DNA from: Escherichia coli
Lineage (GTDB): Bacteria > Pseudomonadota > Gammaproteobacteria > Enterobacterales > Enterobacteriaceae
Strand: one strand, 5' to 3'
DNA length: 64,000 nucleotides
Assembly: GCF_044324875.1 (NCBI RefSeq)
Contig: NZ_CP172185.1
The translations under genes and the position numbers were made by a program. The number at the start of each line of letters is the position of its first letter. Position 1 is the stretch's first letter. Shown in pieces: positions 16,858-59,890 of this stretch. The notes beneath the pieces are model-generated. The model was not told the origin of the DNA. It did not search any database and saw nothing but the letters and a program-made list of their open reading frames with translations.

Positions 16858-20239
<3,382 letters not shown>

Positions 20240-35002: not shown

Positions 35003-35370
35003 CGAATTCAAAAACGCATTAACCGACAGTAATTAAATGAGAGGGACGTGTCAGAAGAGGCTTCCCCTTATTTTATACGTCCAGTTCGGTAAAGAGTATT
35101 AGCCCACAGGACGAGGCTTATCCGAAACTACAACTCTGAAGGATTTAGTTAATCGCTTTAGAATTTCCAACTTCCGTTCCTCGCTCACAGCAGACCTTAA
35201 GATCTAGGAGGGAGTCCGCTCAGTGCCATGGGCGGACCTTAAGCTTCAGTAATTTGATTAGCACAATCCCTATGATAAATAGACTGGCCCCCTGAATCTC
35301 CAGACAACCAGTATCACTTAAATAAGTGATAGTCTTAATACTAGTTTTTAGACTAGTCATTGGAGAACAG

Positions 35371-35736
35371 ATGATTGATGTCTTAGGGCCGGAGAAACGC
35401 AGACGGCGTACCACACAGGAAAAGATCGCAATTGTTCAGCAGAGCTTTGAACCGGGGATGACGGTCTCCCTCGTTGCCCGGCAACATGGTGTAGCAGCCA
35501 GCCAGTTATTTCTCTGGCGTAAGCAATACCAGGAAGGAAGTCTTACTGCTGTCGCCGCCGGAGAACAGGTTGTTCCTGCCTCTGAACTTGCTGCCGCCAT
35601 GAAGCAGATTAAAGAACTCCAGCGCCTGCTCGGCAAGAAAACGATGGAAAATGAACTCCTCAAAGAAGCCGTTGAATATGGACGGGCAAAAAAGTGGATA
35701 GCGCACGCGCCCTTATTGCCCGGGGATGGGGAGTAA
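35371..35736 (+). CDS. insC: IS2 transposase InsC (OrfA)
   Basis: [47 protein letters not shown] matches IS2 InsC. Confidence 0.9.
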
Positions 35737-36599
35737 GCTTAGTCAGCCGTTGTCTCCGGGTCTCACGTGCGCAACTGCATGCCATGGCCCGTCGGTCGAA
35801 GGACTGGCAGGATCGTCGGTGCAAGCGCAAGCCTGATGATACTGACGCGCTGGCCCGTATCCATACCGTTATCGGCGATCTGCCCACCTATGGTTATCGT
35901 CGGGTATGGGCACTGCTGCGCAGACAATCAGAAACTGACGACATGGCGGTGATCAATGCCAAACGCGTATACCGCATCATGCGTCAGAATGCGCTGCTGC
36001 TTGAGCGTAAACCGGAAATACCGCCATCGAAGCGGGCGCATACAGGGAAAGTGGCCGTTGGAGAAAGTAACCAGCGGTGGTGCTCTGACGGCTTCGAGTT
36101 CAGCTGTGATAACGGTGAAAAACTGCGGGTCACGTTCGCTCTGGACTGTTGCGATCGCGAGGCACTTTACTGGGCGGCCAGTAACGGTGGATATGACAGT
36201 GAAACCGTGCAGGACGTCATGCTGGGTGCCGTGGAGCGTCGTTTCGGTAACAGCCTGCCGACATCCCCAGTTGAGTGGCTGACAGACAACGGTTCAGCCT
36301 ACCGTTCTTATCAGACGCGTCAGTTCGCCAGAATGGTAGGACTGGAGCCTAAACATACGGCGGTACGTAGCCCGGAAAGCAACGGGATGGCAGAGAGCTT
36401 CGTGAAAACGATGAAGCGCGATTACATCAGCATCATGCCGAAACCCGACGGGTTAACAGCGGTAAAGAACCTTGCGGAGGCCTTCGAACATTACAACGAA
36501 TGGCATCCGCATAGTGCACTGGGGTATCGTTCGCCACGGGAATATCTGCGGCGGCGAACCAGTAATGGGTTAAGTGATAAAAAGTGTATGGAAATATAG
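35694..36599 (+). CDS. insD: IS2 transposase InsD (OrfB)
   Basis: 301 aa, matches IS2 InsD. Confidence 0.9.
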
Positions 36600-36610
36600 G
36601 GGCCAATCCA

Positions 36611-36967
36611 ATTGCACTGTTTCGAGGCTATCCGGCGACGATAAGAACTGACCAGGGGCCGGAGTTCACTTGCCGTGCACTGGATCAATGGGCCTTTGAG
36701 CATGGTGTTGAGTTGCGCTTAATCCAGCCGGGCAAGCCAACGCAGAACGGATTTATTGAGAGCTTTAACGGACGATTTCGCGATGAATGTTTGAATGAGC
36801 TCTGGTTCAGCGATATCGTTCATGCCAGGAAAATTATTAATGACTGGCGGCAGGATTATAACGAATGCCGCCCGCACTCCACGCTGAATTATCAGACACT
36901 GTCTGAATTTGCAGCGGGCTGGAGAAAGGGTCATTCTGAGAATGAAGATTCCGACGTTACTAACTGA
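36611..36967 (+). pseudogene. IS3-family (IS407-group-like) transposase, C-terminal fragment interrupted by IS2
   Basis: frame open from the IS2 end; integrase core C-terminus (TDQGPEFT...[21 protein letters not shown]...[10 protein letters not shown]). Confidence 0.7.
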
Positions 36968-37905: not shown

Positions 37906-38901
37906 CTAGATTGACTCGCGGGGAAGCCAGGGACTCTCAACTATCACTTTATCCCGGTGGGTGTCACCATTGATAATGTGCAGTGTACTTAAGCGCCCAA
38001 TTTCATAATGCGGTAGCTGGACCGTGGATAATGGGGGTAAAAATAAGTTTCCAATGCCTACAAGATTGTCATAGCCAAGAACGGCAATATCCTGTGGGAT
38101 TCTGATACCCTGCGTTAACAATGTTTGATACACCATAAATGCAATACGATCGTTACCACAGATGACCGAATCAAATCGCGGTTTCCCCTGTTCGATATGC
38201 GCCAGCAACATCTCCGGAATATCTCGGTAGTGCTCATCGCCGAATTGCATATAGCAGTGCTCAAGCGTATCAGGATCGATACTGGCTTCCCTGCAGGCGC
38301 GATCAAGCCCACGACGACGACGACGCGTCGCCAGATGGTTGACGGGTAAATGCAGGCATAGAGGGCGGCTGTATCCTGCTGCCAGCAGTGCCTGTACGGC
38401 CGTATACTGGCCATGTTCATCGTCAGGTATATAGCTGGCAACCGGCTCTCCCTTGTTCTCGCAGTTGGCCAGAACGCAAGGAAGCTCCAGTAACCGGGGA
38501 GGAATACTGACTTCACGCAGCCCCATGGTAGTAAAAATGATCCCCCCGGGTCGATGGGCGAGCAGCAGGTCGACAATATCGTCAGGATTATCATCGGTAA
38601 ACATATTCACCACAAAGCTGTTCCAGCCATACGCCCGCGCGGTTTCTTCAATAGACAGCGTGATTTCTACTGAAAAAGGAGTGGTGACCGTATCCAGCGC
38701 AAGCACACCAATCGTTTTGTTCCGGGTGCCAACACGACGAATCTGCTGGGCAGAAAGGTCTGGCACATAATTTAACTGCGTGATCGCCTCCTGCACCCGA
38801 GCCAGAGTCTCAGGCTTTACGCGTTTCGGGTCATTCAGCACCCGTGAAACCGTCATGAGCGATACATTGGCCAGTTTGGCCACATCCTTTAAAGACGCCA
38901 T
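37906..38901 (-). CDS. fosR: LacI-family transcriptional repressor of the fructooligosaccharide/sucrose locus
   Basis: 331 aa; HTH MASLKDVAKLANVSLMTVSRVLN; divergent from the transporter operon; symbol assigned from remembered fos locus gene order. Confidence 0.8.
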   Translation of the reverse strand: MASLKDVAKLANVSLMTVSRVLNDPKRVKPETLARVQEAITQLNYVPDLSAQQIRRVGTRNKTIGVLALDTVTTPFSVEITLSIEETARAYGWNSFVVNMFTDDNPDDIVDLLLAHRPGGIIFTTMGLREVSIPPRLLELPCVLANCENKGEPVASYIPDDEHGQYTAVQALLAAGYSRPLCLHLPVNHLATRRRRRGLDRACREASIDPDTLEHCYMQFGDEHYRDIPEMLLAHIEQGKPRFDSVICGNDRIAFMVYQTLLTQGIRIPQDIAVLGYDNLVGIGNLFLPPLSTVQLPHYEIGRLSTLHIINGDTHRDKVIVESPWLPRESI

Positions 38902-39033
38902 AGTTTTCCATTATCTGAATGCATACACCCGGTAAGGTGTTGTGAGCAAATGCGAATGCCCTATTCTAGGCACGGACACCCAGGGTTATGCAGACCACTC
39001 TGATAAATTTGAGCTAGATCTCAACATTTCAAT

Positions 39034-39045
39034 GTTAACGTTAAC
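39034..39045. promoter_or_regulatory. candidate LacI-family operator (perfect palindrome GTTAACGTTAAC centred on CG)
   Basis: located in the divergent fosR-transporter intergenic region. Confidence 0.3.
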
Positions 39046-39141
39046 TTTTGTGATTAACATCGACAAACAAATCAAAATCGAGTGTCCCCCCAAAATGATA
39101 ACGTTACCATATTAGCATATCCTTCTTACGAGATTACGTAG

Positions 39142-40380
39142 ATGAAAAAACGGCCTACTCGAAGTTACATGCTGCTCAGCGCTCTGCTGTTCTTTTTCTT
39201 TGTGACCTGGTCCTCATCAAGTTCACTGCTCTCAATCTGGCTTCACCAGGAAGTGGGGCTAAAAGCATCGGAAACCGGCATTATTTTTTCAGTATTATCC
39301 GTCTCCGCGCTCTTCGCGCAGGTCTGTTATGGCTTTATTCAGGACCGACTTGGTCTGCGCAAACATTTGTTATGGTTTATCACCGCGTTGTTGATCCTCT
39401 CCGGCCCGGCTTATCTGCTTTTTAGTTATTTGCTGAGCGTTAATATTCTGCTGGGCAGCGTATTCGGGGGCTTATTTATCGGGCTGACGTTTAATGGGGG
39501 TATCGGCGTTCTGGAGTCCTATACCGAGCGCGTCGCGCGTCAAAGTACCTTTGAGTTTGGGCGGGCACGCATGTGGGGGTCTCTGGGCTGGGCAGTTGCC
39601 ACGTTTTTTGCCGGGTTACTGTTTAATATCAACCCTGACCTTAACTTCCTGGTGGCTTCATGCTCAGGGTTAATCTTCTTCTGCCTCCTGGCCCGATTAA
39701 AGGTGGCCGCGCCGGCAAGCATGGAGAAACTCGAAATTGGCGCTAAAAAAGTTTCTCTGGAAGACGCCCTGCGTCTGCTTACTCTGCCGCGCTTCTGGGC
39801 ACTGATATTCTTCGTGGTCGGAACCTGCATTTACGGCGTATACGATCAGCAATTCCCGGTCTATTTCTCATCACAGTTCCCGACATTACGCGAAGGGAAC
39901 GAGATGTTTGGCTATTTAAACTCTTTCCAGGTCTTTCTCGAGGCCGCAGGTATGTTTTGTGCGCCGTGGCTGGTTAATCGCATTGGTGCTAAAAATGGTC
40001 TGATATTCGCAGGAATGGTGATGGCGCTGCGCATGATTACTTCAGGGCTGGTGGAAGGCCCCCTGCTTATCTCCATTACCAAACTGCTTCACGCGGTCGA
40101 ACTGCCAATATTGTTAGTCGCCATATTTAAATACAACAGTCTGAATTTCGACAAACGTCTCTCCTCCACCATTTATCTGGTGGGATTTGCCTGCACCAGC
40201 TCCGTCATTGGTACCGTATTGTCCCCGCTGGCAGGCTTTAGCTATGAGAGATTTGGCTTCGCCCAATCCTATCTGATCATGGGCATCATGGTGTTCAGCA
40301 CCACGTTTATTTCCATTTTCCTTTTGCGCTCAACTAAATCCTCATCTGAGCCATCTTTTCTGCAGCAAAAAGCTGTGTAA
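39142..40380 (+). CDS. fosT: oligosaccharide:H+ symporter (LacY/CscB/RafB family, MFS)
   Basis: 412 aa, 12 TM, similarity to remembered CscB (LNSFQV, KLLHA.E.P, FDKRLSSTI motifs). Confidence 0.8.
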   Translation: MKKRPTRSYMLLSALLFFFFVTWSSSSSLLSIWLHQEVGLKASETGIIFSVLSVSALFAQVCYGFIQDRLGLRKHLLWFITALLILSGPAYLLFSYLLSVNILLGSVFGGLFIGLTFNGGIGVLESYTERVARQSTFEFGRARMWGSLGWAVATFFAGLLFNINPDLNFLVASCSGLIFFCLLARLKVAAPASMEKLEIGAKKVSLEDALRLLTLPRFWALIFFVVGTCIYGVYDQQFPVYFSSQFPTLREGNEMFGYLNSFQVFLEAAGMFCAPWLVNRIGAKNGLIFAGMVMALRMITSGLVEGPLLISITKLLHAVELPILLVAIFKYNSLNFDKRLSSTIYLVGFACTSSVIGTVLSPLAGFSYERFGFAQSYLIMGIMVFSTTFISIFLLRSTKSSSEPSFLQQKAV

Positions 40381-40399
40381 TGTACTGAGAATAAAGACG

Positions 40400-41833
40400 A
40401 TGACATCCTTATTAGAACAGGCTGAACAGGTGCTTGAAAAAGCACAATCCGGGATTAATCCGCGCTGGTATCCGCGCTATCACCTCGCCCCTCGCGCAGG
40501 CTGGATGAATGATCCTAATGGCCTGGTATGGTTTGACGGCTGGTATCACGCCTTTTATCAACACCATCCCTACTCCCCGAAATGGGGTCCGATGCACTGG
40601 GGGCACGCCCGAAGCAAAGATCTGGTGCATTGGGAACATTTGCCCGTCGCGCTAGCGCCGGAAGGCCCGGCGGACAAAGACGGCTGTTTCTCAGGTTCCG
40701 CCGTGGTGGACGGCGATACGCTGGCGCTCATCTATACCGGACATAAATTTCACGGCCCGTCGGACACTGACGACAACCTCTACCAGGTGCAGTGTCTGGC
40801 GACCAGTCGTGACGGCATCCATTTTGAACGGCACGGCAAGGTGATTGATACACCGCCCGGACTGCATCACTTTCGCGATCCGAAGGTGTGGCGCGAAGGT
40901 GAGTTCTGGTACATGGTTGTCGGTTCCCGCGTGGAAAATACCGGTCAGGTGCGCCTGTACCGTTCCACCGATCTCCGCGAATGGCATGACGAAGGTATTT
41001 TCGCCGAGGCTGATGAAGGCAAGGGCTTTATGTGGGAATGCCCGGATTTCTTCCCCCTGGGAGAGAAGCGTGTCCTGATGTTCTCGCCGCAGGGCATGGC
41101 GGCGGAAGGGTATCACTATCGCAACCTGTTCCAGAGCGGTTATTTACTTGGGGACTGGCAGCCAGGTCAACCGTTCACCCACAGCGGACAATTTACTGAG
41201 CTGGACCACGGCCACGACTTTTATGCCCCGCAGAGTTTCCTGACCCCGGATGGCCGACGCATTGTCATCGGGTGGCTGGATATGTGGGAATCATCGATGC
41301 CCGAACAGCAGGATGGCTGGGCCGGAATGCTCTCGCTTCCTCGCGAATTAAGCCTTGTCGATGGTCGTGTGAGAATGAAACCTGCTGCCGAAGTGACCGC
41401 GCTGCGTGGCAGCTATTATCCCACGCCCGTCCGCTGTCTGAACAATCAGAACGTCCTTGTCGCGGCAAATGCCGACGCGGTCGAAGTTCAGTTGGCATGG
41501 GATTTGAGCGCATCGACGGCTGAACAGTTTGGTATCGCGTTGGGCGACGGGTTGAGAATTTACGTCGATGATCAGGCTGGGCGTCTGGTGGTGGAGCGCC
41601 GCTATCCGGAATATTCGCTGGAAGGCACTCGCAGTATTCCGCTTCCAGCAGACAGCGTTCTGTCACTGCGAATTTTTATTGACCGCTCATCGGTGGAAGT
41701 TTTTGTTAACGATGGTGACGCTTGCTTAAGCAGTCGTATTTATCCGCAGCCGGGCGAGCGTGATATTTCATTGTTTGCAAATCTGGGGAAGGCCTCATTA
41801 TACGATGCGGGATACTGGTCTTTAGATAAATAA
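40400..41833 (+). CDS. GH32 beta-fructofuranosidase, cytoplasmic (CscA-like)
   Basis: 477 aa; GH32 motifs WMNDPNG, FRDP, ECPDFF; no signal peptide; likely fosGH2. Confidence 0.9.
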   Translation: MTSLLEQAEQVLEKAQSGINPRWYPRYHLAPRAGWMNDPNGLVWFDGWYHAFYQHHPYSPKWGPMHWGHARSKDLVHWEHLPVALAPEGPADKDGCFSGSAVVDGDTLALIYTGHKFHGPSDTDDNLYQVQCLATSRDGIHFERHGKVIDTPPGLHHFRDPKVWREGEFWYMVVGSRVENTGQVRLYRSTDLREWHDEGIFAEADEGKGFMWECPDFFPLGEKRVLMFSPQGMAAEGYHYRNLFQSGYLLGDWQPGQPFTHSGQFTELDHGHDFYAPQSFLTPDGRRIVIGWLDMWESSMPEQQDGWAGMLSLPRELSLVDGRVRMKPAAEVTALRGSYYPTPVRCLNNQNVLVAANADAVEVQLAWDLSASTAEQFGIALGDGLRIYVDDQAGRLVVERRYPEYSLEGTRSIPLPADSVLSLRIFIDRSSVEVFVNDGDACLSSRIYPQPGERDISLFANLGKASLYDAGYWSLDK

Positions 41834-41925
41834 TTCTCCGTTCCGACCTGTTTCTTGCAGGGTGAGTTTTTATTTCTGCCAGTCTCTGGCTGGCATGTTA
41901 TTGTCTGGAATAATGAGAGAGCAAA

Positions 41926-43191
41926 ATGGATGAAAGCGTAATACCTCAAAATTGCATTACCTCGAAAGATAAAAATATATTTGTTCCAGGAAAACAGATG
42001 CTGGCATTAATGGTGACATTAGCAGCATTTCCTGCCATTGCTGAAGACGTTACAGGAAACTATCAAAGCTATTTTCAGGATGAATCAGACACCAACGGTA
42101 CGAGTGTTTCATTAGCCAATCAAGGCAATGAAAAATCATCCCTTAGCGCTTCATCTTCTCCGGTTGCTGCAGGTCAAAAACCTGAACTCACGACCTCGTC
42201 AAAGCCAGTGACGTTATCGGCACCAATGGAGAATAAGAAAACTGCAGTAGAAAAACGTCCTAAAGGGGATAACCCTAAAGATGTCAGTCTGTTGCGTTTA
42301 AGGCAGGAAGATCCGCCGGTTCACTGGAACAGTATTGGTCGTAACATGGAAGTGGGTAGCTTGCATGGGAACATTGGATCTCAGATAGAAATTGACGATG
42401 TTCGCTGGAGCAATAATAAGAAAAACAGCGGCAAGTTTAAACTCGCCACCATTCAGGCTTTTTTAAGGCACGATGAATTGCCTAACTGGTATTTCGGTTT
42501 CTGGAATGCCAGAGAAGACAGTTATAAAGGACAGTTCAGTAATCAGGACTATAAAGGCACCAATACCATCAATGAATTTTTTGTGGGCCATATTTTCGAA
42601 ACCTGGCGGGGTAATATCGGTACGGAAGTCATGGTCGGCTCCGAAACGGCAACTAAACGCTGGAAAAACCGGTTCAAAGTCTGGCAGGACCTGCGACTGT
42701 CCAACAAATGGAGCCTGGCCGGATACGCGTATGGCGAGTATCAGCCTCAGGGGAACGAACCGGGGAATGGCGATCTGGAGCAGTACATTTTCGAAATTGA
42801 GCCAGCCATTCAATACCGCGTGAATCCGGATCTCGGACTCTATTTGCGGCCCTATTATTACCATAACCGCCAGGAGCGTCAGAGCTGGGGCGACATTGTA
42901 GAAGAAGAATGGAAAGTCACGGCCGGGCTCTGGCGAAACTGGTATCCATTATTAACCTCCCTGTATGTTGGATTTGGCCAGGACAAAATAGATAACGCCA
43001 GCAATGCCAGCGAAGTTTTCTATGACGGCCGTTATAAGTTTATCGGTGGAACGCTGAGTTATCCGGTATTTGGTGAGGTGCGATTATATGGTGAATTCAA
43101 GGCACAATTTACGAAAGAAACCGGACTTTGGACATCAACCGGTCACTCATGGAATCCGTTTACCGTGGTTGGCGTGAATTATAACTTCTGA
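41926..43191 (+). CDS. putative outer-membrane beta-barrel protein (likely fosX); true start may be the internal ATG near 41998
   Basis: 421 aa; C-terminal aromatic residue (…VGVNYNF), alternating amphipathic strands, Ser/Thr-rich linker after the signal region. Confidence 0.55.
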   Translation: MDESVIPQNCITSKDKNIFVPGKQMLALMVTLAAFPAIAEDVTGNYQSYFQDESDTNGTSVSLANQGNEKSSLSASSSPVAAGQKPELTTSSKPVTLSAPMENKKTAVEKRPKGDNPKDVSLLRLRQEDPPVHWNSIGRNMEVGSLHGNIGSQIEIDDVRWSNNKKNSGKFKLATIQAFLRHDELPNWYFGFWNAREDSYKGQFSNQDYKGTNTINEFFVGHIFETWRGNIGTEVMVGSETATKRWKNRFKVWQDLRLSNKWSLAGYAYGEYQPQGNEPGNGDLEQYIFEIEPAIQYRVNPDLGLYLRPYYYHNRQERQSWGDIVEEEWKVTAGLWRNWYPLLTSLYVGFGQDKIDNASNASEVFYDGRYKFIGGTLSYPVFGEVRLYGEFKAQFTKETGLWTSTGHSWNPFTVVGVNYNF

Positions 43192-43205
43192 TATTCAGGT
43201 GTAGC

Positions 43206-44699
43206 ATGAAAAAATTAATAGTTGCGGCATCTTTCGCTCTGCTTGCGCTTTCGCTCGGCAATAACCCTGCCTGGTCACAGCCTTCGAAAGAGACATTACA
43301 GAATAAAAGCATCACCCATATTAATGGCTTTTTTCCGAGGGTTGAAGGTTCATTCGTGGGCGACCCTATGCCCGTTTTTAACGATGGCAAATTTGATATT
43401 TATTATCTTAATGATGTCCGAGGCGGCAGCGATCTGGGGGTACATGCTTTTCATCTCTTGTCGAGTGCCAACTTGTATGATTATCAGAACCATTCGGAAG
43501 TGATCCCCTACGTTAACGACGTTGACGATCCTGAACTGTTATTGGGAACCGGTTCGATTATTAAAGTCGGCGATACCTGGCATGCCTGGTACACCGCACA
43601 CAATGAAAATGTGTTCCCGGTTGAGTCTGTTATGCACGCGACCAGTAAGGACCGCCTTCACTGGGTGAAACACCCGCAGGACACCCTGTTACCCGGCGGT
43701 AACTATCGGGGTAATGATTTCAGGGACCCTCACGTCGTTTGGGTTGAGGAAAAGAAAGAATACTGGATGTTAATTACTACGCGCAGTAATGGTCGTGGGG
43801 TTATTGCCCGATACAGTTCAACGGATTTAAAGCACTGGGAAGATCGCGGCGTATTTTTTGATAACGACACCATCACCAGCAATGCCAACCTCGAATGCCC
43901 GACACTGGTTTACTTCAACGGACGCTGGTATCTCAGCTTTAGCGACCAATGGCCGTTACGCCTGACACAATACCGGGTTGCGGACAATCCGGAGGGGCCG
44001 TGGCGGAAACTGGACAATTATGTGGTCGACGGCTCAGGTTTTTACGCGGGTAAACTGGTTCTCAAAAACGATCGGCTGTTTGTTTTCGGCTGGATCCCGA
44101 CGAAAGCCGGTAACCGTGACAGCGGCAACATTGATTGGGCAGGGAATCTGGTTGCTCATGAGCTCACCGCAGATGCCCAGGGCCAGCTCAACAGCATCCT
44201 CCCCCAGGAGCTTCAGAAGGTCATCAGTGAGAATCCTGGCCCGGAAACCACCTTGACGAGCACTAAGACACTCAAAACGGACACGTCGTTCGGCCCCTTA
44301 CAGTCGGCGCTGTACCCGGCCTTGCCTGAGCGCGGTGAGTTGAGTGCAACCATCGATGTTCCTTCTGCCGGAATGGTGATGAGCTTTGGTCTGACCGACG
44401 ACAGAGTCAGTGATGCGATGCTGAACGTTGTGTTCAATAAGAGCAAAGGAAAAGTCTATTTTTTCAACGCGCCGCTAGCGTCGATTCATCAGGCTAACGC
44501 GGAATCCTGGGTGGACATTCCGATCGGGGAAAAAATTGAGTTACGCGTTCTCATACAAAACTCAATTGCTGTCTTTTATATAAACAACAAAGTGGCATTC
44601 AGTACCCGGATGTATTCCATGCAGGAGAAACCGTGGAGTATTAGCCTGCCTCAAAACGACCATTTTCACGCGACGTTGAAAATAAAAGAAATGATTTAA
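43206..44699 (+). CDS. GH32 fructan/fructooligosaccharide hydrolase, secreted
   Basis: 497 aa; signal peptide MKKLIVAASFALLALSLG; GH32 motifs (FRDPHVVW, ECP); likely fosGH1. Confidence 0.85.
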   Translation: MKKLIVAASFALLALSLGNNPAWSQPSKETLQNKSITHINGFFPRVEGSFVGDPMPVFNDGKFDIYYLNDVRGGSDLGVHAFHLLSSANLYDYQNHSEVIPYVNDVDDPELLLGTGSIIKVGDTWHAWYTAHNENVFPVESVMHATSKDRLHWVKHPQDTLLPGGNYRGNDFRDPHVVWVEEKKEYWMLITTRSNGRGVIARYSSTDLKHWEDRGVFFDNDTITSNANLECPTLVYFNGRWYLSFSDQWPLRLTQYRVADNPEGPWRKLDNYVVDGSGFYAGKLVLKNDRLFVFGWIPTKAGNRDSGNIDWAGNLVAHELTADAQGQLNSILPQELQKVISENPGPETTLTSTKTLKTDTSFGPLQSALYPALPERGELSATIDVPSAGMVMSFGLTDDRVSDAMLNVVFNKSKGKVYFFNAPLASIHQANAESWVDIPIGEKIELRVLIQNSIAVFYINNKVAFSTRMYSMQEKPWSISLPQNDHFHATLKIKEMI

Positions 44700-44711
44700 C
44701 GGGATATTATT

Positions 44712-45725
44712 ATGAAAAACTATCATGCCCTGTCTGTTATTTTTACTCTTATGTTACCCGCGCTGGCGAATGCGAGCATGAGCATCATGAAGGATCCGTC
44801 TGGAAAGGTTATCGCCGTGGACCCTTGGTCATATCTTGATGAAGATGTTATGTGGACCTCAGCCCGCTCCTCCAATCCTGCCGGTGGCCGCGTTCATGGC
44901 CAACTGAAAATGAAATATGCCATTGAGGATAATAACTGGCGTAACAGCCATTTCCACAACGGGAATGATTCGCTGACGTTTGTACAAGGTGTGATGCGGC
45001 ACGATGCGTTACCCGGTTGGTATCTGGCTTTCTCTGAGGGCAGAACCACTAACTATAACGGGACGTGGGAGGATCAGTCTTACCTCAGCCAAAACCAGTG
45101 GACTCAGTTGATCATCGGCCATGAATATTTTTACAAGCGTCTGCGCTATGGCTGGGATGTGATGGGAGGAAGCGCCTCAATCGAAGACCGCTGGCAAGGC
45201 CGCGTTAAGTTCTTTACCGATCTTCGGGTTACGGATAATTTCTCATTCTTTAACTACCTGTATCAGCAGATCGATCACCGGCGCAGCGGTGGGTCGCAAA
45301 ACGACCGTGACGTGCGTTCATTTCAGATTGAGCCAGGCGTGCAATACATTATTAATAACAACACCGGTGTCTGGTTCCGCCAGCAGTTCGCATCTGCCAT
45401 TTTAGACAGGGCGCAGTGGGGCGATATCGACGAAAAAAGCTGGACCACGTCAGTCGGCGTCTGGCGAAACTGGGGGAAGTTATCCACAACGCTCAGCGGC
45501 GGTTATGGTCATTATAAGAAATACAATGCGCAACCTGAGGATGGCGAAGTCTTTCAGAATACCCGCAATCGCTTCCTGAAGGTATCGGCAAATTATCCTT
45601 TGACCTCTCGTTTTACCGTGTCCGGAGAAGTTACTGGTTCGTTGATCAAACAGAACGGAAGTTGGGTCACTAACGGTGAGGCCATTACCACTGAGTATAA
45701 GCTGATGCTGGATTATAACTTTTAA
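44712..45725 (+). CDS. putative outer-membrane beta-barrel protein, paralog of 41926-43191 (likely fosY)
   Basis: 337 aa; signal peptide; shares motifs with the 421-aa protein (GVWRNW, GDI.E..W, C-terminal ...DYNF). Confidence 0.55.
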   Translation: MKNYHALSVIFTLMLPALANASMSIMKDPSGKVIAVDPWSYLDEDVMWTSARSSNPAGGRVHGQLKMKYAIEDNNWRNSHFHNGNDSLTFVQGVMRHDALPGWYLAFSEGRTTNYNGTWEDQSYLSQNQWTQLIIGHEYFYKRLRYGWDVMGGSASIEDRWQGRVKFFTDLRVTDNFSFFNYLYQQIDHRRSGGSQNDRDVRSFQIEPGVQYIINNNTGVWFRQQFASAILDRAQWGDIDEKSWTTSVGVWRNWGKLSTTLSGGYGHYKKYNAQPEDGEVFQNTRNRFLKVSANYPLTSRFTVSGEVTGSLIKQNGSWVTNGEAITTEYKLMLDYNF

Positions 45726-45838
45726 ACCGTACGCTGGATAATCCATGCCACCTGAACACGCTGAAGCGTTAGTAAAAATAGTGACCTTACCGCAGGTCAC
45801 GTTTAAAAAAACAAGTTAATTATTATTAAGGAAATATC

Positions 45839-46801
45839 ATGAATATCTGGACTCTTGGCGATGCTGTTGTTGATCTTCTACCCCTTACAGATATGCAATT
45901 TCGTGCTTGTGCAGGAGGTGCGCCATTTAATGTTGCGATAGGTACTGCACAATTGAAATGTCGTACCGGCTTTATAGGTCGCGTAGGGGATGACGATTTT
46001 GGCCATTTCCTGAGAAAAACTCTCGAAGATTCAGGAGTTTCTACACAATGTATCCAAATGGATAAATATCATCGTACAAGTACAGTACTGGTTTCTCTTA
46101 AAGATCAGGGAGAACGTGGTTTTACATTTCTTACGAACCCTTCAGCCGACCAATTTCTAACACAAGATGCCCTTCCAGCTTTTAGTGATGATATCCTGCA
46201 TTTTTGTTCACTTGCGCTGGTTGCTGCAGATTGCCGCACGACTTTGACTAAAGCAGTCCAGGAAGTCATTGACCACGGTGGACTTATCAGCTTTGATGTT
46301 AATTTACGAGACCAAATGTGGCGTGATAAGGAAGAAATGTTTGCGACAGTGAGTCAATTCGCTGAAAAAGCCGATATCCTTAAACTCTCTGAAGAAGAGT
46401 GGTACTGGTTAATGGGTACACATGATTATACAGAGGCGTTAGAAGCACTCAAAACCCATCCTGCCAGATTAAAAGTGGTCACCTTTGGTGCGAGAGGTTC
46501 ATTGGTATTATGGCAAGATATGGTGATACATTTCAGAGGATTTAATGTTAAAAGTATTGACACAACAGGCGCTGGAGATGCTTTTATGGCTGGGTTACTT
46601 GCCAGCATCGCCAATAAAGGTTTGCCAATGAATTTTCCAGAACTTCAATTAGCAATCACTCAGGCCAGTGCCACCGGAGCGCTCGCAACTACCAAAAAAG
46701 GTGCACTTACCGCCCTTCCTGATACAGCCGCACTGGAAACGTTCATTAATCATTTTCCATTACCGGGCTATGAGATCCTTGGAGCAACCGCTACGGTGTA
46801 A
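45839..46801 (+). CDS. fosK: PfkB-family fructokinase
   Basis: 320 aa; PfkB motifs GGAPFNVA and DTTGAGDAF. Confidence 0.85.
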   Translation: MNIWTLGDAVVDLLPLTDMQFRACAGGAPFNVAIGTAQLKCRTGFIGRVGDDDFGHFLRKTLEDSGVSTQCIQMDKYHRTSTVLVSLKDQGERGFTFLTNPSADQFLTQDALPAFSDDILHFCSLALVAADCRTTLTKAVQEVIDHGGLISFDVNLRDQMWRDKEEMFATVSQFAEKADILKLSEEEWYWLMGTHDYTEALEALKTHPARLKVVTFGARGSLVLWQDMVIHFRGFNVKSIDTTGAGDAFMAGLLASIANKGLPMNFPELQLAITQASATGALATTKKGALTALPDTAALETFINHFPLPGYEILGATATV

Positions 46802-47081
46802 CAACTTTTCATGCTGTATGGTGTAGGAATATAGCAAACGTATCTTCAATTGTTAGTTATGACCTCTAGAAGTATGAGATATCTTTTGTAGATAATCATG
46901 GCTGTGTATGGGCAGCCTTATACTGCCCCTTTTTCTATTACCTTAAGAAAGATAAGTACAGTTTGCTTTCCTGGAGATTAATGCATGCTCTGGATAGCAA
47001 TCCTCAACTATCAGCAGAAAGTAGATAAAATTTCAGGGTGGCCCTATAAAAATCATTAGATGCGTTTCTGACGTTACTTAG

Positions 47082-47454: not shown

Positions 47455-49026
47455 TTACTGAGAGCTCAGATCAACTTTCCAGGGCAACAGATCGCGTACC
47501 CGGTTTGCCGGCCAGTCCTGGATATGTTCAATGACGTAACGCAGCCACTTTTCTGGCTCCACATTGTTCAGACGGCATGTGCCGATCAGCGAGTACAACA
47601 CCGCCGCATGTTCACCACCGCTGTCGGAACCCGCGAACATCCAGTTTTTCCGGCCTACGGCCACTCCCCGTAAGGCGTTCTCTGCGATGTTGTTGTCGAT
47701 TTCCACCCAGCCATTACTGCAGTACACGTTCAGTGCATCCCACTGTTTCAGCAGGTATGCGAACGCTTTTGCCGTATCTGAGTGACGCGACAGTGTTTTC
47801 ATCTGTTGCTGTATCCAGTCATACAGTGACTGCATCAGTGGCGCGGCTCTGGCTTTTCTTGCCGCCAGACGCTGTTCTGCTGAACAGCCCCGGACCTCTG
47901 CCTCGATGGCATACAGTTCACCGATACGCTGCAGGGCTTCCGTGGTGATGTAGGTGGGCGCTCTTGCATGCACATCGTGGATTTTTCTCCGGGCATGAGC
48001 CATACACGCGGCTTCCGTTATTCTGCCGGATTCGTATAACGCCCGGTAACCACCGTAAGCATCGGCCTGAAGCACACCGCTGTAACCGGCCAGGTGATTT
48101 TGTGGATGGATACCTTTCCGGTCCGGACTGTACGCGAACCAGACCGCCGGGGGCATCTGTGAACCGGCGTTACGGTCATCACGGACGTAGACCCACAGCC
48201 GGGCTGTCCGGGTTTTACCGCTGCCCGGCTCCTGGACCGGGACGGGGATATCATCAGCATGGACTTTACCGGGCATCAGCACATACTGGCGCAGGACGTC
48301 ATACAGCGGCTCCAGCAGTTCAGCAACAGCACCTGTCCAGCGCCCCAGTGTGGCACGGCTCAGCTCCACTCCCTGACGACGGTATATTTCTGACTGGCGG
48401 TATAACGGCAGATGGTCTGCATATTTCCCGGTGACAACATGGGCCAGAAGCCCCGCTCCGGCATAACTGCGTGCAATGGGTTTTGAAGGTACTGGTGCCT
48501 GCACGATATGGTCGCACCGGCAACAGGCCTGTTTCGGACGTTGTGTTTCGATAACCTTAAAGGCGCTGCTGATAAGCTCCAGTTGCTCTGACACATCACA
48601 TCCCAGAGAACTGAGTTCACCACCACAGGCAGGACAGCATTCCTCTTCCGGCCGGATAACCCGGGTTTCACGGGGAAGTGAGGCCGGTAACGGTTTACGG
48701 GCTGAAGACTGGCGCAGGGCGGATGGCAGTACCGGGTCATATTGCTCACCCAGCGTTTCCGCCATTTCTTCCTGAAGTGCGCTGATTCGCTCCTGTGCTT
48801 CCTGTATCTGCCGTTCGGTTTTTGCACGAAGTTTTTCTGAGCTTTTACCGAACTGCATACGTTGCAGTTTCGCAACCAGCGCCTTCAGCCGGTTGATTTC
48901 GGAAGCATAAGCCGCCACCCGCTGTGAGAGCAGGCGGTTGTATTCAGCCATCTGGCGGATGGTGTCCTGTTGCGTCTGCAACAGTGCCCGCAGGCGGGCG
49001 TTCTCATGAGCAAGTGAGGTGTCCAT
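47455..49026 (-). CDS. IS66-family transposase TnpC
   Basis: 523 aa; N-terminal coiled coil/leucine zipper, zinc-finger CPACGG, DDE region. Confidence 0.9.
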
Positions 49027-49045
49027 ATCCTCACTTTACAACGGG

Positions 49046-49393
49046 TTATATGCGGATTCCAGCGCGTTCCGTTCGTTTCGGGTGCTTCCAGTTGATACCT
49101 TCAAGAAGCATGGATAACTGAGCCGGAGTAAGGTGCACCTTGCCGTCACGGGTGACTGGCCAGACGAAGCGGCCCCGCTCCAGGCGTTTGGTGAAGAGGC
49201 ACAGTCCGTCACTGTCAGCCCACAACACTTTTATCTGGTCACCCCGGCGTCCGCGGAAGATGAACAGGTGTCCGGAGAACGGGTCATCCTTCAGGACGTT
49301 CTGAACTTTTGATGCCAGGCCGTTAAAGCCATTTCGCATATCGGTGATACCTGCAACCAGCCAGATACGCGAACCTGCAGGGAGAGATATCAT
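49046..49393 (-). CDS. IS66-family TnpB
   Basis: 115 aa; MISLPAGSRIWLVAGITDMRNGFNGLA is the conserved IS66 Orf2 signature. Confidence 0.9.
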   Translation of the reverse strand: MISLPAGSRIWLVAGITDMRNGFNGLASKVQNVLKDDPFSGHLFIFRGRRGDQIKVLWADSDGLCLFTKRLERGRFVWPVTRDGKVHLTPAQLSMLLEGINWKHPKRTERAGIRI

Positions 49394-50070
49394 CAGTGGC
49401 TGCTCCCTTTTATTTCGCGGATAAGTGTCTGTAATAACGCCGGCGTCAGTTTACCTTTAAGCCTGAGAGTTCCGGCCGGCAGAACCAGCTCACAACACAG
49501 ACTGTCGGACGGTGTATTTATCTGCTCTGGTTCCTGTGCGGGGGCCGGGATTTTATTATCCGGCTCCGGCGTTAACGTCACGGGAAGCAGTGCCGGCATA
49601 TTTTTTCCGGAAGGCAGCAGGCCACCTTTCCGGTATTGATGGCGCCAGTTGAAGAGCAGGTTATCGTTGATTCCGTTTTCCCGGGCGATCTGCGCCACAC
49701 AGGCTCCGGGCTGCAGTGACTGCTCCACTAAGGCGATTTTAAACTCATAAGGGAAGTTGGGCCGCCGGGGACGTTTTTTTACCACGGGGGCTTCGGATAT
49801 AACGGTGCTTTCAGGACGTACGACTGGTACCGTGGAAAATTGTCCGTAAAGGCAGGCATCAAGTTCCTGCTCCGACATGCCTGCGGGCAAAGGCCACGAA
49901 AGGCCAGCTCTCCGAAAGCGCACGAACATACTACAAACTGTTGATTTTGGTACACCCAGGCGACGCCCGGCCACAACCCGGGGTAAATGTTCTTCAAAGT
50001 GAAGACGTAAAGCTTCAGTGATCCAGGTCCGGTGTTTCATACGATAGTGTCCATTAAAAATGATGGACAT
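49393..50070 (-). CDS. IS66-family accessory protein (TnpA/Orf1-like with HTH)
   Basis: 225 aa; start overlaps the tnpB stop; N-terminal HTH. Confidence 0.7.
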   Translation of the reverse strand: MSIIFNGHYRMKHRTWITEALRLHFEEHLPRVVAGRRLGVPKSTVCSMFVRFRRAGLSWPLPAGMSEQELDACLYGQFSTVPVVRPESTVISEAPVVKKRPRRPNFPYEFKIALVEQSLQPGACVAQIARENGINDNLLFNWRHQYRKGGLLPSGKNMPALLPVTLTPEPDNKIPAPAQEPEQINTPSDSLCCELVLPAGTLRLKGKLTPALLQTLIREIKGSSH

Positions 50071-53818: not shown

Positions 53819-53826
53819 ATACTCCC

Positions 53827-55128
53827 TCAGGTGCGTTTTTTGCGACGTTCTGCAATAAAAGTAACCAGAAAAAAAGCACCAATAAGATCAAAAAATCCCA
53901 TGGCGATAAATAGCGGGTTAAAGCCTATTTTGTCAGCAGTAACGCCAATAATCAGTGAGAACAAAAAGCTGGCAATCCATGCGGCTGAACCACGCATTCC
54001 ATTAACAGTGGCCATCTGCCCCTTATCAAAAGATTCAACGACCAGGGCACTTAACATGCAGGAAATTATCTGATGACCAAAACCACCAATGGAGATAAGT
54101 ACAATAGCAATATATGGATTGTCGATAAAAGCAATCACAGCAAGCGAAACCATTAGAAATGCTCCGCTTACAGAGGACGCAATAACAGAATTTACTCTGC
54201 TTAACCCAAACAGACGGGTATAGAGTTTTGTCAGATATCCGCTGGCAATACTTCCTAAATCAGCGCAAAGAAATGGTAACCATGCAAACAGAGCTATTTG
54301 TTTAAGGTCCATGCCATATGCTTTTGCAAGATATAATGGCACCCAAAAGCTCATTACAGCCCATGCTGGCTCTGCCATAAATGCAGGGATAGCGATTCCA
54401 TAAAAGCGTTTATTTTTACTAACTGTTTTTAACGCGGTCAGAAAAGGCATTTTTACCGGAGGAGCTTCGTTATCCTGTCGGATAAAGTTGAGCTCATTTT
54501 TACTTAAGTTTGGGTGCTCTTCTGGTGTGTTATAACACGCCCACCAAAGGAAAACCCAAAGAATTGCAAGTGCACCTGTAAACATAAATGCACCCTGCCA
54601 ACCAAATGACGCATGTGCAAAGTAAATAATTGGTGGTGCAAGCATTGCACCGATAGAAAAACCGACACCCGCCCAGCCAGCAGCAACAGGACGTTCAGAT
54701 TTTGGAAACCACTCACCTATAATTTTTGCATTTGCAGGTGTCGCAGAAGCCTCAGCACCTCCCATGAAAAAACGAAGCAACGCAAGCTGTATCCAGCTTC
54801 CTGCTCCTGCATGCAGAAGACAAGCAATTCCCCATAATGAAGCACAAATCATAAATCCAATCTTGAGCCCAATAACATCAATTAGCCATCCACAAAGTGG
54901 CTGAAAAAGGGTATATGCAAGCTGAAATCCACCAACAATCCAGGAGTATTGTTCAGTTGTAATTCCAAGGCTGTCTTTTAACTCTGGTGCCAAAATACCT
55001 AATGAGTTTCTGGTAATATAATTGACAGTGACACCCATTAGAAAAAGGATTAACATCCACCACCGTAGTTGTCTTATTATTCGACGGTGTTTGCTGACAG
55101 CTATATTATTATTTATATCCTGACTCAT
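53827..55128 (-). CDS. MFS transporter (anion:cation symporter-like)
   Basis: start placed at the internal ATG (MSQDINNN) with RBS; 12 TM; operonic with the GH31 gene. Confidence 0.8.
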   Translation of the reverse strand: MSQDINNNIAVSKHRRIIRQLRWWMLILFLMGVTVNYITRNSLGILAPELKDSLGITTEQYSWIVGGFQLAYTLFQPLCGWLIDVIGLKIGFMICASLWGIACLLHAGAGSWIQLALLRFFMGGAEASATPANAKIIGEWFPKSERPVAAGWAGVGFSIGAMLAPPIIYFAHASFGWQGAFMFTGALAILWVFLWWACYNTPEEHPNLSKNELNFIRQDNEAPPVKMPFLTALKTVSKNKRFYGIAIPAFMAEPAWAVMSFWVPLYLAKAYGMDLKQIALFAWLPFLCADLGSIASGYLTKLYTRLFGLSRVNSVIASSVSGAFLMVSLAVIAFIDNPYIAIVLISIGGFGHQIISCMLSALVVESFDKGQMATVNGMRGSAAWIASFLFSLIIGVTADKIGFNPLFIAMGFFDLIGAFFLVTFIAERRKKRT

Positions 55129-55389
55129 AATCACCCCACCGGATGTAATAAATGATCGAGCGACAACGCAGCTCGGGGTTGCCACATCCCACTTTACCTT
55201 TCGGCTTAATACTTAAACCGGAACTACTCATTCACAATAAAAGAGGGGGGCGATGAAAAAAAGTTGGTATTGTGCACGTTTTTTCATAAGTAGTTCATAT
55301 AAATTCTAAAAATAGTCAGAAGTCCTTGCAGTCAGGCTATTCCATCCCATGAGAATTTTTTCATTTTGAAATTAGAGATAGATCACAAT

Positions 55390-58311: not shown

Positions 58312-59496
58312 TTAACTTTCCCGGCTGGAGAGTGAATCAATGTAATCAGCGTACCATTGCATCATTTCACGGCGGCCATCGAGATACAGGGCATGATTAT
58401 AGGTACCCCTGATGGAATTTTTATCCACATGAGCTAACTGCATTTCAATCCAGGCGGAATTAAAGCCTTGTTCATGCAGAATTGTACTCATGGTGTGTCT
58501 GAAACCGTGCCCTGTGAGTCTTCCCTTATATCCAAGTAATTCAATTACTTGGTTAATGCTTTCCTTACTAATTGGTTTGCGGGGATCATTTCTACCGATA
58601 AAGACTAGGGGATGATGTTTTGAGATTGGTTCAAGCTGCTTAAATAGCATAATGACCTGCTCAGAGAGCGGCACAATATGAGGTCGCTTCATCTTCATTA
58701 CTTCTGCCGGGATCTCCCACAATTTTGTCTCAAAATCGATATCTTCCCAGCGTGCAAAACGCAGTTCTTGTGTTCGTACGCCGGTTAACATAATGATCTG
58801 AGTAGCTGTCTTAGTGATTATACTTCCGGTATAACCCGCCAGATCGTTGAGGAAGTGGGGAAGTTCATTAGCAGTAAGAAAGGGAAAATGTACTTTTTTC
58901 GGTGTAGCTAAAGCACTGGCAAGATCGGGGGCTGGGTTATAGTCTGCCCGGCCAGTAACAATTGCATAGCGGAACACCTCACCACAGCGCTGGCGGACCT
59001 TGCGCATTTTCTCCAGAGCTCCACGTTTTTCCATTTTACGCAGTGCTTCCAGTAACTCCATTGGTTTGATTTCGGCAATAGGGCGCTTGCCAATGTAGGG
59101 AAAAATGTCTTTTTCAAAGGTATCAATGATTTCATCACGATAGCGTAATGACCACCGATCGGCTTTTGACTGGTGCCATTCGCGAGCAATAGCCTCGAAC
59201 GTATTTTGCAGACTCATTTGCTGCGCGATTTTTTCTTCCTTTTTTGCCTCCCCTGGATCGCCTCCAGCAGCGAGGAGTTTCCTGGCTTCACTGCGTTTCT
59301 CGCGAGCATCGGCTAGCGTTACATCGGGGTATACGCCAATAGAAAGCATCTTTTCTTTACCAGCAAAGCGGTACTTCATGCGCCAGTATTTAGAACCATT
59401 AGTGTTAATCAGTAGATACATACCGCCGCCATCAGCAAGCTTATAGGGTTTGTCTTTGGGTTTTGCGGTTTTCACTTTGATATCGGTTAATGCCAT
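58312..59496 (-). CDS. P4-type tyrosine integrase
   Basis: 394 aa; N-terminus MALTDIKVKTAKPKDKPYKLADGGGMYLLI; catalytic R...H..R...Y region; adjacent to the tRNA. Confidence 0.9.
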   Translation of the reverse strand: MALTDIKVKTAKPKDKPYKLADGGGMYLLINTNGSKYWRMKYRFAGKEKMLSIGVYPDVTLADAREKRSEARKLLAAGGDPGEAKKEEKIAQQMSLQNTFEAIAREWHQSKADRWSLRYRDEIIDTFEKDIFPYIGKRPIAEIKPMELLEALRKMEKRGALEKMRKVRQRCGEVFRYAIVTGRADYNPAPDLASALATPKKVHFPFLTANELPHFLNDLAGYTGSIITKTATQIIMLTGVRTQELRFARWEDIDFETKLWEIPAEVMKMKRPHIVPLSEQVIMLFKQLEPISKHHPLVFIGRNDPRKPISKESINQVIELLGYKGRLTGHGFRHTMSTILHEQGFNSAWIEMQLAHVDKNSIRGTYNHALYLDGRREMMQWYADYIDSLSSRES

Positions 59497-59780
59497 GACA
59501 TCCTCCGGCTTTTGATGAATTCATGTTCCTGAGGGGGATTTCTGCCAGTAACTAACCTGATACCCCCAATACACCCCTTGTATAACAAAGATGTTGTTAA
59601 AAGCCGTTGTTATATATCATATTTTTCCTATTATGGGGGTGCTGGTATTTCAATAGGAAATAACACCCCCTAAAGTACCCCCAAAAGAAACTTGATACGG
59701 GGTGAAGTAGGTTGACCTCTGGATACAAATAAATACTGATATACAAGGGATTAGAAGAGATTTATTGACATTGGGAGAGT

Positions 59781-59819
59781 TCAGAAGAGGTAAACTGGCG
59801 GAAGATCACAGGAGTCGAA
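59781..59819. repeat. island attachment-site repeat, selC-proximal copy (overlaps the 3' end of selC)
   Basis: direct repeat of 8348-8386. Confidence 0.7.
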
Positions 59820-59890
59820 CCTGCCCGGGACCGCTGGCGGCCCCAACTGGATTTGAAGTCCAGCCGCCTCACCGGAGACGACGATCTTCC
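59796..59890 (-). tRNA. selC: tRNA-Sec (selenocysteine, UCA anticodon)
   Basis: rc of 59796-59890 reads GGAAGATCGTCGTCTCCGGTGAGGCGGCTGGACTTCAAATCCAGTTGGGGCCGCCAGCGGTCCCGGGCAGGTTCGACTCCTGTGATCTTCCGCCA, the E. coli selC sequence (95 nt). Confidence 0.95.

Follow-up and report, generated by a model that had tools for sequence, protein, structure and literature searches.

The fos locus of the selC island AGI-3 of Escherichia coli: a probable horizontally mobile scFOS-use pathway with two predicted outer-membrane channels and a BT1760-like secreted GH32 enzyme

The window, by which we mean the whole 64,000-nucleotide stretch of E. coli DNA analyzed here (contig NZ_CP172185.1), contains seven ORFs lying exactly at positions 37906-46801, where the initial annotation had placed a seven-gene fructooligosaccharide-type locus; both the ORF coordinates and the family matches agree with that assignment. 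The genes, the candidate sites in the spacer between fosR and fosT and the flanking island features are the following.

37906..38901, - strand: fosR, divergent LacI/GalR-family repressor (ORF and LacI-family NCBIfam matches)
39031..39048, no strand assigned: upstream FosR operator candidate AATGTTAACGTTAACTTT, with a perfect, CG-centred 12-bp core at 39034-39045
39049..39064, no strand assigned: CRP-like site TGTGA-TTAACA-TCGAC, abutting the upstream operator candidate
39095..39110, no strand assigned: downstream FosR operator candidate ATGATAACGTTACCAT, palindromic at 14 of its 16 positions, half-site match at 39096-39108
39142..40380, + strand: fosT, LacY-type oligosaccharide:H+ symporter of the inner membrane (NCBIfam matches)
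40400..41833, + strand: fosE1 (fosGH1), cytoplasmic GH32 beta-fructofuranosidase (TIGR01322)
41926..43191, + strand: fosX, predicted 14-stranded outer-membrane channel with a signal peptide (PF16946)
43206..44699, + strand: fosE2 (fosGH2), predicted secreted (periplasmic) BT1760-like GH32 enzyme (signal peptide and Pfam)
44712..45725, + strand: fosY, predicted 14-stranded outer-membrane channel, a FosX paralogue without the long extension
45839..46801, + strand: fosK, PfkB-family putative fructokinase
46910..46928, + strand: terminator-like hairpin followed by a T run, 3' of fosK (consensus scan only)
58312-59496, within a - strand context block (58312..59890): island integrase
59796-59890, within the same - strand block: tRNA-Sec gene selC, insertion site of the island carrying fos

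The fos locus of strain BEN2908 and its island AGI-3 were reportedly described by Schouler in 2009 and by Porcheron in 2011 and 2012. The locus of this avian E. coli (island AGI-3, GenBank AY857617), the strain in which fos was defined, served as our reference. Both loci have the same seven genes in the same order, orientation and selC island context, and they differ at 4 of 8,896 nt (99.96% nucleotide identity). Five of the seven Fos proteins, FosR among them, are identical to their BEN2908 counterparts, and the amino-acid changes number two in all, K118E in FosX and L151F in FosE2. The gene content and order, a divergent fosR followed by fosT-E1-X-E2-Y-K, is that of the published description (PMC3325963). 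The locus is the published fosR / fosT-E1-X-E2-Y-K cluster and as such already known; the resemblance to the AGI-3 locus of avian pathogenic E. coli that had been pointed out in the initial annotation is borne out by these few differences and by the tRNA-Sec and integrase genes found downstream in the window. The same selC and integrase arrangement occurs in BEN2908 and in strain 510016. The two loci part after fosK, where an IS66 element directly adjoins in the window whereas IS5/IS1 remnants are found in BEN2908. An Rfam search gave no match inside the fos locus. Among 5,426 complete E. coli genomes, 37 carry fos; 44 plasmids in Escherichia, Klebsiella and Salmonella carry it as well, and of these 37 are predicted to be conjugative.

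The fos locus confers growth on scFOS, which is abolished by deletion of fosT, so that growth is not limited to sucrose; the locus also aids gut colonisation (PMC3325963). Moved into MG1655, it gave better growth with scFOS (bioRxiv 10.64898/2026.02.25.707879). The inner half of the pathway is readily assigned. FosT scored above the curated cut-offs of both the galactoside-permease and the oligosaccharide MFS subfamilies (NF007077, 529.7 bits against a cut-off of 429; TIGR00882, 419 bits against 220). FosE1 matched TIGR01322 at 476.9 bits, has 7vco as its nearest solved structure (E=2.5e-163) and carries the GH32 motifs WMNDPN35, RDP159 and ECP213; a signal peptide is absent from its sequence, and the enzyme is cytoplasmic. 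FosK reached 345.8 bits with the fructokinase model NF006957, under its cut-off of 450, and is named aminoimidazole riboside kinase or PfkB kinase by PGAP; fructokinase FosK is the name used in PMC3325963.

It was shown previously that FosR binds two operators, that a fosR deletion derepresses the fos promoter, that repression is relieved by scFOS and that the operon is under catabolite repression, and a CRP-cAMP site was reported for the fosR-fosT region (PMC3325963). FosR has LacI-family matches over aa 1-315, with a LacI/GalR HTH and a periplasmic-binding-protein-like fold, and its target promoter, a divergent region of 240 bp, contains two CG-centred candidate sites. The initial annotation had proposed as an operator the 12-bp palindrome GTTAACGTTAAC at 39034-39045. 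This palindrome is indeed perfect, conserved and paired, but alone it is not statistically unusual, since the window holds 15 perfect 12-bp palindromes and shuffled sequences 15.9 +/- 3.9, a count not above chance. What makes it meaningful is a second copy matching its half-site, its place in the divergent promoter and its conservation in orthologous promoters that have otherwise diverged. The operator motif had 3 matches against 0.28 expected, a number reached in 0 of 100 shuffles, and the palindrome forms the conserved core of a motif that occurs in pairs at orthologous promoters. The upstream candidate lies within a 31-nt block that is 100% conserved though the promoter flanks have diverged, and its 13-mer is also found at the orthologous promoters of Affinibrenneria and Orbus. 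The downstream candidate, 39.5 bp 5' of the fosT ATG and at a distance of 63 bp from its upstream counterpart, is kept in loci L002 and L003; L009 likewise has paired operator-type sites, 62-71 bp apart. In the CRP-like site, which is kept in L002 and L009, only the left half fits the consensus well, the right half being weak. Both operator candidates and the CRP-like site are conserved across genera. Neither the second operator candidate nor the CRP-like site figured in the initial annotation.

On this sequence evidence, the palindrome at 39034-39045 very probably represents one of the pair of FosR operators to which PMC3325963 refers. FosR would bind two CG-centred TG(T/A)TAACGTTA(A/C)C sites at a spacing of 63 bp, of which the upstream one abuts the CRP-like site and the downstream one covers the probable core promoter, 40 bp 5' of fosT. 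A sigma-70 consensus scan detected no promoter in the fosR-fosT spacer; the promoter that we infer would be weak, depend on CRP and overlap the downstream operator candidate. A full-text literature search with the operator sequences returned unrelated papers only.

In the searchable fos literature FosX and FosY are described as of 'unknown function', and this literature contains no experiment on fosX, fosY or fosE2. Both proteins matched PF16946 (Porin_OmpG_1_2), FosX with 433.6 bits and FosY with 429.3 bits, over model positions 1/2-294 of 294, and PGAP names them 'OmpG porin family protein'. They are paralogues (31% identity, E=1e-52), each with a signal peptide and a terminal YNF. Their AlphaFold models are 14-stranded barrels of high confidence, for which the best structural matches are CymA and OmpG. 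The initial annotation had described two paralogous outer-membrane beta-barrels sharing motifs, and their identity, their common Pfam family and the barrel topology predicted for each are in accord with it. At the sequence level these relationships are faint: FosX and FosY have no detectable homology to E. coli OmpG (2f1c), among all PDB chains FosY had only a chance sequence match (E=0.84), and NCBIfam has no model matching either protein. The family itself is small: an exhaustive representative search of 1.84 billion proteins yielded 18 clusters at 50% identity, and thus no deeper homologues by which the models might be improved. A full-text literature search for PF16946 or 'OmpG-porin 1' found no experimental paper on any of its members. 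In FosX the barrel spans aa 146-420 and is separated by a disordered linker of about 80 aa from an N-terminal motif, YQSYF (aa 46-50), that sits on this disordered tether. A reading of the FosX N-terminus as a TonB box was rejected, as it has no likeness to the consensus and there is no plug domain. Where X-E2-Y would be expected, a truncated fos-like plasmid locus carries a LamB/ScrY-type carbohydrate porin, apparently as a functional substitute. From the models, FosX and FosY are predicted to be outer-membrane sugar channels.

FosE2 has a Sec-type signal peptide, MKKLIVAASFALLALSLGNNPAWS, without Cys, and the E. coli protein lacks a lipobox. Its Pfam architecture is GH32N followed by a GH32_BT1760-like_C domain (PF16346, E=1.4e-7), and its GH32 motifs, FVGDPM50, RDP173 and ECP230, leave the catalytic triad intact. 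Like FosE1, it has the five-bladed propeller domain of GH32, the first motif including the nucleophile Asp. The nearest solved structures are the BT1760 entries 6r3r, 7znr and 8a9y (E ~1e-45, aa 37-480); in the alignment the nucleophile, the RDP and EC motifs and Thr104, Gln239, Arg244 and Cys222 (BT1760 numbering) are conserved. These features suggest that FosE2 is a secreted, periplasmic, BT1760-like fructan-cutting enzyme. BT1760, the characterised enzyme closest to it, is active on levan, whose linkage is beta-2,6, whereas that of scFOS is beta-2,1; the actual range of substrates may therefore not be the one studied so far. Conceivably, the main substrates of the locus are longer or levan-type (beta-2,6) fructans, with FosE2 an endo-fructanase cutting pieces for FosT and scFOS one of several substrates. 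That the endo-levanase BT1760 is the sole close solved relative of FosE2, with the triad, the pocket residues and the C-terminal domain all shared, speaks for such a role, and two distinct channels would suit two size or linkage classes. Nevertheless, inulin-type scFOS was the substrate in the published work on induction and growth (PMC3325963), similarity at this level does not fix linkage or endo/exo specificity in GH32, and polymers such as levan would be too large for a 14-stranded channel; we regard a mainly levan-directed function as possible but somewhat unlikely.

The three genes fosX, fosE2 and fosY are separated in the window by gaps of only 14 and 12 nt. The locus order is T-E1-X-E2-Y in Orbus, T-X-E2-Y in L012 and R-X-E2-Y in Affinibrenneria; in L007 and L011 an E2-like GH32 lies directly 5' of the porin gene, with a porin identity of about 27%. 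As read from gene order, the conserved unit is X-E2-Y, or an E2-like GH32 plus a porin, with both barrels flanking the secreted enzyme. The proposal in the initial annotation that each barrel is paired with one GH32 enzyme has to be abandoned, because FosE1 is cytoplasmic and distant loci couple the porin solely with an E2-type enzyme. Another reading is that the locus is a mere csc-like sucrose cluster in which both barrel genes are accessory or decaying. Its core, consisting of a LacY-type symporter, a cytoplasmic invertase-like GH32, a fructokinase and a LacI repressor, is the same as that of sucrose regulons, and truncated versions devoid of X-E2-Y exist. This explanation is contradicted by the published fosT-dependent growth on scFOS (PMC3325963); furthermore, none of the genes X, E2 and Y is disrupted, purifying selection acts on all three across the span from E. 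coli to Orbus, and both barrels were modelled with high confidence. We consider it highly improbable.

Such close association could reflect a physical outer-membrane complex of FosX, FosE2 and FosY, a proteobacterial counterpart of the Bacteroides utilisome in which the enzyme stays attached to the channels, the FosX tether being one conceivable means, or is even surface-exposed. The strictly conserved X-E2-Y order with its short gaps, the occurrence of YQSYF on the disordered tether in 75 of 77 FosX orthologues, and the lipoboxes of the E2-like enzymes of L007 and L011, which would anchor them in the membrane beside their porin, are all consistent with a complex. In addition, BT1760 works bound to an outer-membrane transporter (bioRxiv 10.1101/2022.08.15.503959; PMC6560043). 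Against this, a lipobox is missing from FosE2 of E. coli, the Brenneria/Affinibrenneria clade has X-E2-Y yet lacks YQSYF, and simple co-expression accounts equally well for the adjacency of the genes. We consider a complex quite unlikely. A broader conjecture, to which we also give a low though slightly higher probability, is that X-E2-Y may be a dedicated fructan-harvesting outer-membrane module of Enterobacterales and Orbales, with two CymA-like channels working with, and perhaps physically holding, a BT1760-like fructanase, and with the YQSYF tether as a docking or gating element. If true, the module would be a TonB-independent analogue of the Bacteroides utilisome, and fos+ pathogens would use more dietary fructans, levan-type included, than the scFOS tested to date.

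We thus favor, with good confidence, the reading of the fos locus of AGI-3 as a horizontally mobile pathway for scFOS use, in which the roles of the channels, FosE2 and the operators are those inferred here. FOS, which at low concentration is too bulky to pass general porins, would enter through FosX and FosY, monomeric 14-stranded channels of the CymA/OmpG type. FosE2, encoded between the channel genes, would act on incoming fructans or FOS and shorten them, either within the periplasm or on the inner side of the outer membrane. The short products would be carried into the cytoplasm by FosT acting as a LacY-type proton symporter. There, FosE1 would hydrolyse them to fructose and glucose, and FosK would phosphorylate the fructose. 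It is already known that fos enables E. coli, extra-intestinal pathogens among them, to feed on a prebiotic that is sold widely; what is added here is the predicted assignment of three uncharacterised genes, two for channels of the CymA/OmpG kind and one for a secreted GH32 enzyme resembling BT1760, to one conserved module. These assignments bear on predicting which fructans fos+ strains compete for, and they are relevant to groups using the fos locus as selectable cargo on engineered plasmids (bioRxiv 10.64898/2026.02.25.707879).

Compared with known systems, the predicted channels resemble CymA, the cyclodextrin channel of Klebsiella oxytoca (4d5b), and E. coli OmpG (2f1c) in fold, with 9-17% identity in structural alignments; OmpG proper belongs to a different Pfam family, and the N-terminal extension of FosX, about 100 aa long, is absent from both. 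LamB and ScrY share with FosX and FosY the inferred role of an operon-encoded outer-membrane entry for oligosaccharides. However, they are 18-stranded trimers of an unrelated fold class, without sequence similarity to the predicted 14-stranded monomers. ScrY, too, has an N-terminal periplasmic extension. The csc sucrose regulon of E. coli consists of cscB, cscK, cscA and cscR. It is like fos in the inner half of the pathway (LacY-type symporter, cytoplasmic GH32, fructokinase and LacI-type repressor) but possesses neither outer-membrane channels nor a secreted GH32 enzyme, whereas fos handles GF2-GF4. Finally, BT1760, from the levan utilisome of Bacteroides thetaiotaomicron, is the nearest solved relative of FosE2 across both domains, and both enzymes are encoded beside outer-membrane transporter genes. 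BT1760 is described as acting at the cell surface with a SusC/D pair (PMC6560043); FosE2, in contrast, has a plain Sec signal peptide and, as the models suggest, is paired with small passive barrels.

The initial annotation had described seven genes between 37906 and 46801, with a family label for each. The ORF listing agrees exactly with these coordinates, and the labels were borne out by family searches:

37906-38901 (-), gene 1, fosR, long ORF, LacI family match
39142-40380 (+), gene 2, fosT, long ORF, NF007077 galactoside-permease subfamily and TIGR00882 oligosaccharide MFS subfamily
40400-41833 (+), gene 3, fosE1, long ORF, GH32
41926-43191 (+), gene 4, fosX, long ORF, PF16946
43206-44699 (+), gene 5, fosE2, long ORF, GH32
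44712-45725 (+), gene 6, fosY, long ORF, PF16946
45839-46801 (+), gene 7, fosK, long ORF, PfkB kinase
46910-46928, terminator-like hairpin after fosK, the last gene

fosT exceeded the cut-offs of both its subfamilies (NF007077, 529.7 bits vs 429; TIGR00882, 419 vs 220), and the best match of fosK in the family search is the fructokinase NF006957, at 345.8 bits, below the cut-off of 450. FosX and FosY each match the Pfam porin family PF16946 at ~430 bits, with the full model covered, and are paralogues as proposed (31% identity, E=1e-52). The gaps between the plus-strand genes are, in order, 19, 92, 14, 12 and 113 nt; the 92-nt fosE1-fosX gap holds a GC-rich hairpin followed by a weak T tail (41877-41895, +), a possible attenuator of transcription between the inner half of the operon (T-E1) and the outer one (X-E2-Y). 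The start of fosX is ambiguous: the ATG at 41926 yields a 24-aa n-region ahead of the hydrophobic core, and the ATG at 41998 (Met25), with AGGA 8 nt upstream, is the annotated start in some database orthologues.

The avian strain BEN2908 served to define the fos locus of island AGI-3, with FosR as its divergent LacI/GalR regulator (PMC3325963). A base-by-base comparison with BEN2908 revealed 4 differences in 8,896 nt, with two amino-acid changes (FosX K118E and FosE2 L151F). Thus, the match to AGI-3 noted initially is correct and the locus is already published. Among 5,426 complete E. coli genomes searched by megablast, 37, including BEN2908, carry the whole fos stretch, on chromosomes and plasmids. 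Since tRNA-Sec, an integrase and left-end core genes are all present, the window spans the whole selC island:

left end of the window, core genes yicS, nlpA, yicL and setC
16858-19041 (-), Ag43 autotransporter gene
51431-53818 (-), GH31 glycosidase, second sugar locus
53827-55185 (-), MFS transporter, second sugar locus
55366-56460 (+), LacI-family regulator, second sugar locus
58312-59496, integrase
59796-59890, tRNA-Sec

Directly downstream of fosK is a complete IS66-family element (tnpA, tnpB, tnpC; 47455-50070, -), whereas BEN2908 has IS5/IS1 remnants at this site. IS3-family copies (35326-36967) flank fosR upstream; insertion sequences bracket the fos block, which is also found on 44 plasmids. 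The second sugar locus (51431-56460) comprises three genes. The Hfq-binding sRNA isrC (19058-19180, +; Rfam RF01387, 147 bits) adjoins the Ag43 gene, and type III secretion genes (a needle-tip protein fragment, a YopB/SseC-family translocon subunit and a SycD/LcrH chaperone; 1-3881, -) lie just outside the island, by yicS.

It was shown by others that scFOS use is fosT-dependent, growth being lost in a fosT deletion and regained with a locus-bearing plasmid; that deletion of fosR derepresses a fos promoter reporter; and that FosR binds two operators, with catabolite repression by glucose also acting on fos expression (PMC3325963). The perfect palindrome GTTAACGTTAAC (39034-39045) had been put forward as a candidate operator. 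The window contains 15 perfect 12-mer palindromes, vs 15.9 +/- 3.9 in shuffles; the palindrome by itself is therefore no proof of function. Functional support comes from its context. An extended motif, TG(T/A)TAACGTTA(A/C)C, has copies at 39033-39045 and 39096-39108 (3 strand-wise matches vs 0.28 expected), with centres 63 bp, or six helical turns, apart, the downstream one lying 39.5 bp before the fosT ATG. Abutting the upstream site is TGTGATTAACATCGAC, the left half of which matches a CRP site well. Both this CRP-like site and the second operator-like site were missed in the earlier reading. In a plasmid variant with diverged flanks, a 31-nt block, AATGTTAACGTTAACTTTTGTGATTAACATC, is 100% identical to the window, and the downstream site is also kept. 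The fosR-fosX spacer of Affinibrenneria (FosR 70% identical) contains TGTTAACGTTAAC then TATTGTGATTAACATC, with another copy of TGTTAACGTTAAC 71 bp on; in Orbus the extended motif lies just 5' of the transporter gene. The two candidate sites and the CRP-like site fit the published two operators plus CRP site. A further TGTTAACGTTAAC pair in Affinibrenneria (L009, 14434-14508), 62 bp apart and upstream of a second, BT1760-like GH32 gene, suggests that a FosR-type regulon includes at least two promoters.

FosX and FosY carry Sec-type signal peptides, and both C-termini end in YNF. AlphaFold, given alignments of 42-43 homologues, predicts a 14-stranded barrel for each, in keeping with the topology proposed for them (FosY, mean pLDDT 82.5, pTM 0.77; FosX, aa 146-420, pLDDT about 90). 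The modelled fold is that of CymA and OmpG, at only 9-17% identity in structural alignments, and searching the PDB by sequence returned no match. OmpG orthology was rejected on both counts; the PGAP name 'OmpG porin family protein' echoes the Pfam family name. We infer with good support that FosX and FosY are outer-membrane channels, probably working like CymA and OmpG. Their family is small, a search of 1.84 billion proteins yielding 18 clusters at the 50% identity level, and its named members are mostly Enterobacterales with some Aeromonas and Orbaceae. Our literature search found no experimental or other paper on PF16946, and no function was assigned to FosX or FosY in PMC3325963 or in a 2026 preprint in which moving the fos locus onto RP4 improved growth of MG1655 with scFOS (bioRxiv 10.64898/2026.02.25.707879).

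Loci of relatives were compared with the fos locus:

L004, Orbus wheelerorum (FosX 42%, FosY 46%): LacY-type, cytoplasmic GH32, X, E2, Y
L012, metagenomic contig: LacY-type, X, E2, Y
L009, Affinibrenneria: LacI, X, E2, Y
L007 and L011, porins about 27% identical: E2-like GH32 immediately 5' of the porin; LacI, ABC importer and cytoplasmic GH32 also present
L006, one distant family member: porin within a non-fructan sugar locus
L002, truncated plasmid fos-like locus (FosT 94%, GH32 87% to FosE1, FosR 88%): LamB/ScrY-type 'carbohydrate porin', without X-E2-Y

The conserved unit is X-E2-Y. Each barrel had been thought to pair with one GH32 enzyme; this is corrected by these loci and by FosE1, which has no signal peptide (best solved relative 7vco, E=2.5e-163) and is the cytoplasmic hydrolase. 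The porin swap in L002 is as expected if the outer-membrane step falls to X and Y. That locus (plasmid p98197-contig_8, 5112-12170; some 14 E. coli records resemble it, most of them plasmids) contains a transporter, cytoplasmic GH32, kinase and LacI regulator, and keeps both operator-like sites.

At the start of the mature N-terminus, FosX-type proteins share a conserved Y-x-S-Y-[F/Y/L] motif, which in the window protein reads YQSYF (aa 46-50; codons about 42061-42075, in the N-terminal region aa 40-125, 42040-42300). Of 77 full-length orthologues, with identities as low as 40%, 75 have Y[QE]SY[FY] and the remaining two YQSYL and YHSYF; the Y-x-S-Y motif is absent from the Brenneria/Affinibrenneria clade only. 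The linker that follows is of variable length and rich in Ser, Thr, Ala, Pro and Lys, and aa 34-143 are disordered in the AlphaFold model (pLDDT below 50).

In the mechanism that we propose, which is well supported, FosE2 would act outside the cytoplasm, FosT would import the products, FosE1 would hydrolyse them and FosK would phosphorylate fructose. More tentatively, FosE2 might trim fructans of greater length or other linkage, substrates might differ between the two channels, and O-site looping might be part of control. The overall fos reading of the initial annotation is thus supported, with corrections to the barrel-GH32 pairing, the missed promoter sites and the significance of the palindrome. 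In this already published locus, interest lies only in the tether motif of FosX and the uncharacterised X-E2-Y module.

FosE2 consists of a GH32 N-domain and a BT1760-like C-domain, and its only close solved relatives are entries of BT1760 (6r3r, 7znr, 8a9y; E about 1e-45, aa 37-480), a Bacteroides endo-levanase (PMC6560043). The BT1760 nucleophile Asp41, RDP Asp169 and acid/base Glu221, as well as the pocket residues Thr104, Cys222, Gln239 and Arg244, all align with identical residues in FosE2. The signal peptide of E. coli FosE2 has no cysteine and no lipobox, whereas the E2-like GH32 of each of the two most distant loci, directly upstream of the PF16946 porin, bears one (LAAC|GG and TAAC|GG; L007 5318-6847, L011 3472-4968) and is therefore probably membrane-anchored. 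Together, the YQSYF motif, these distant lipoboxes and the kinship with BT1760 are compatible with a module in which channel and enzyme might be physically coupled.
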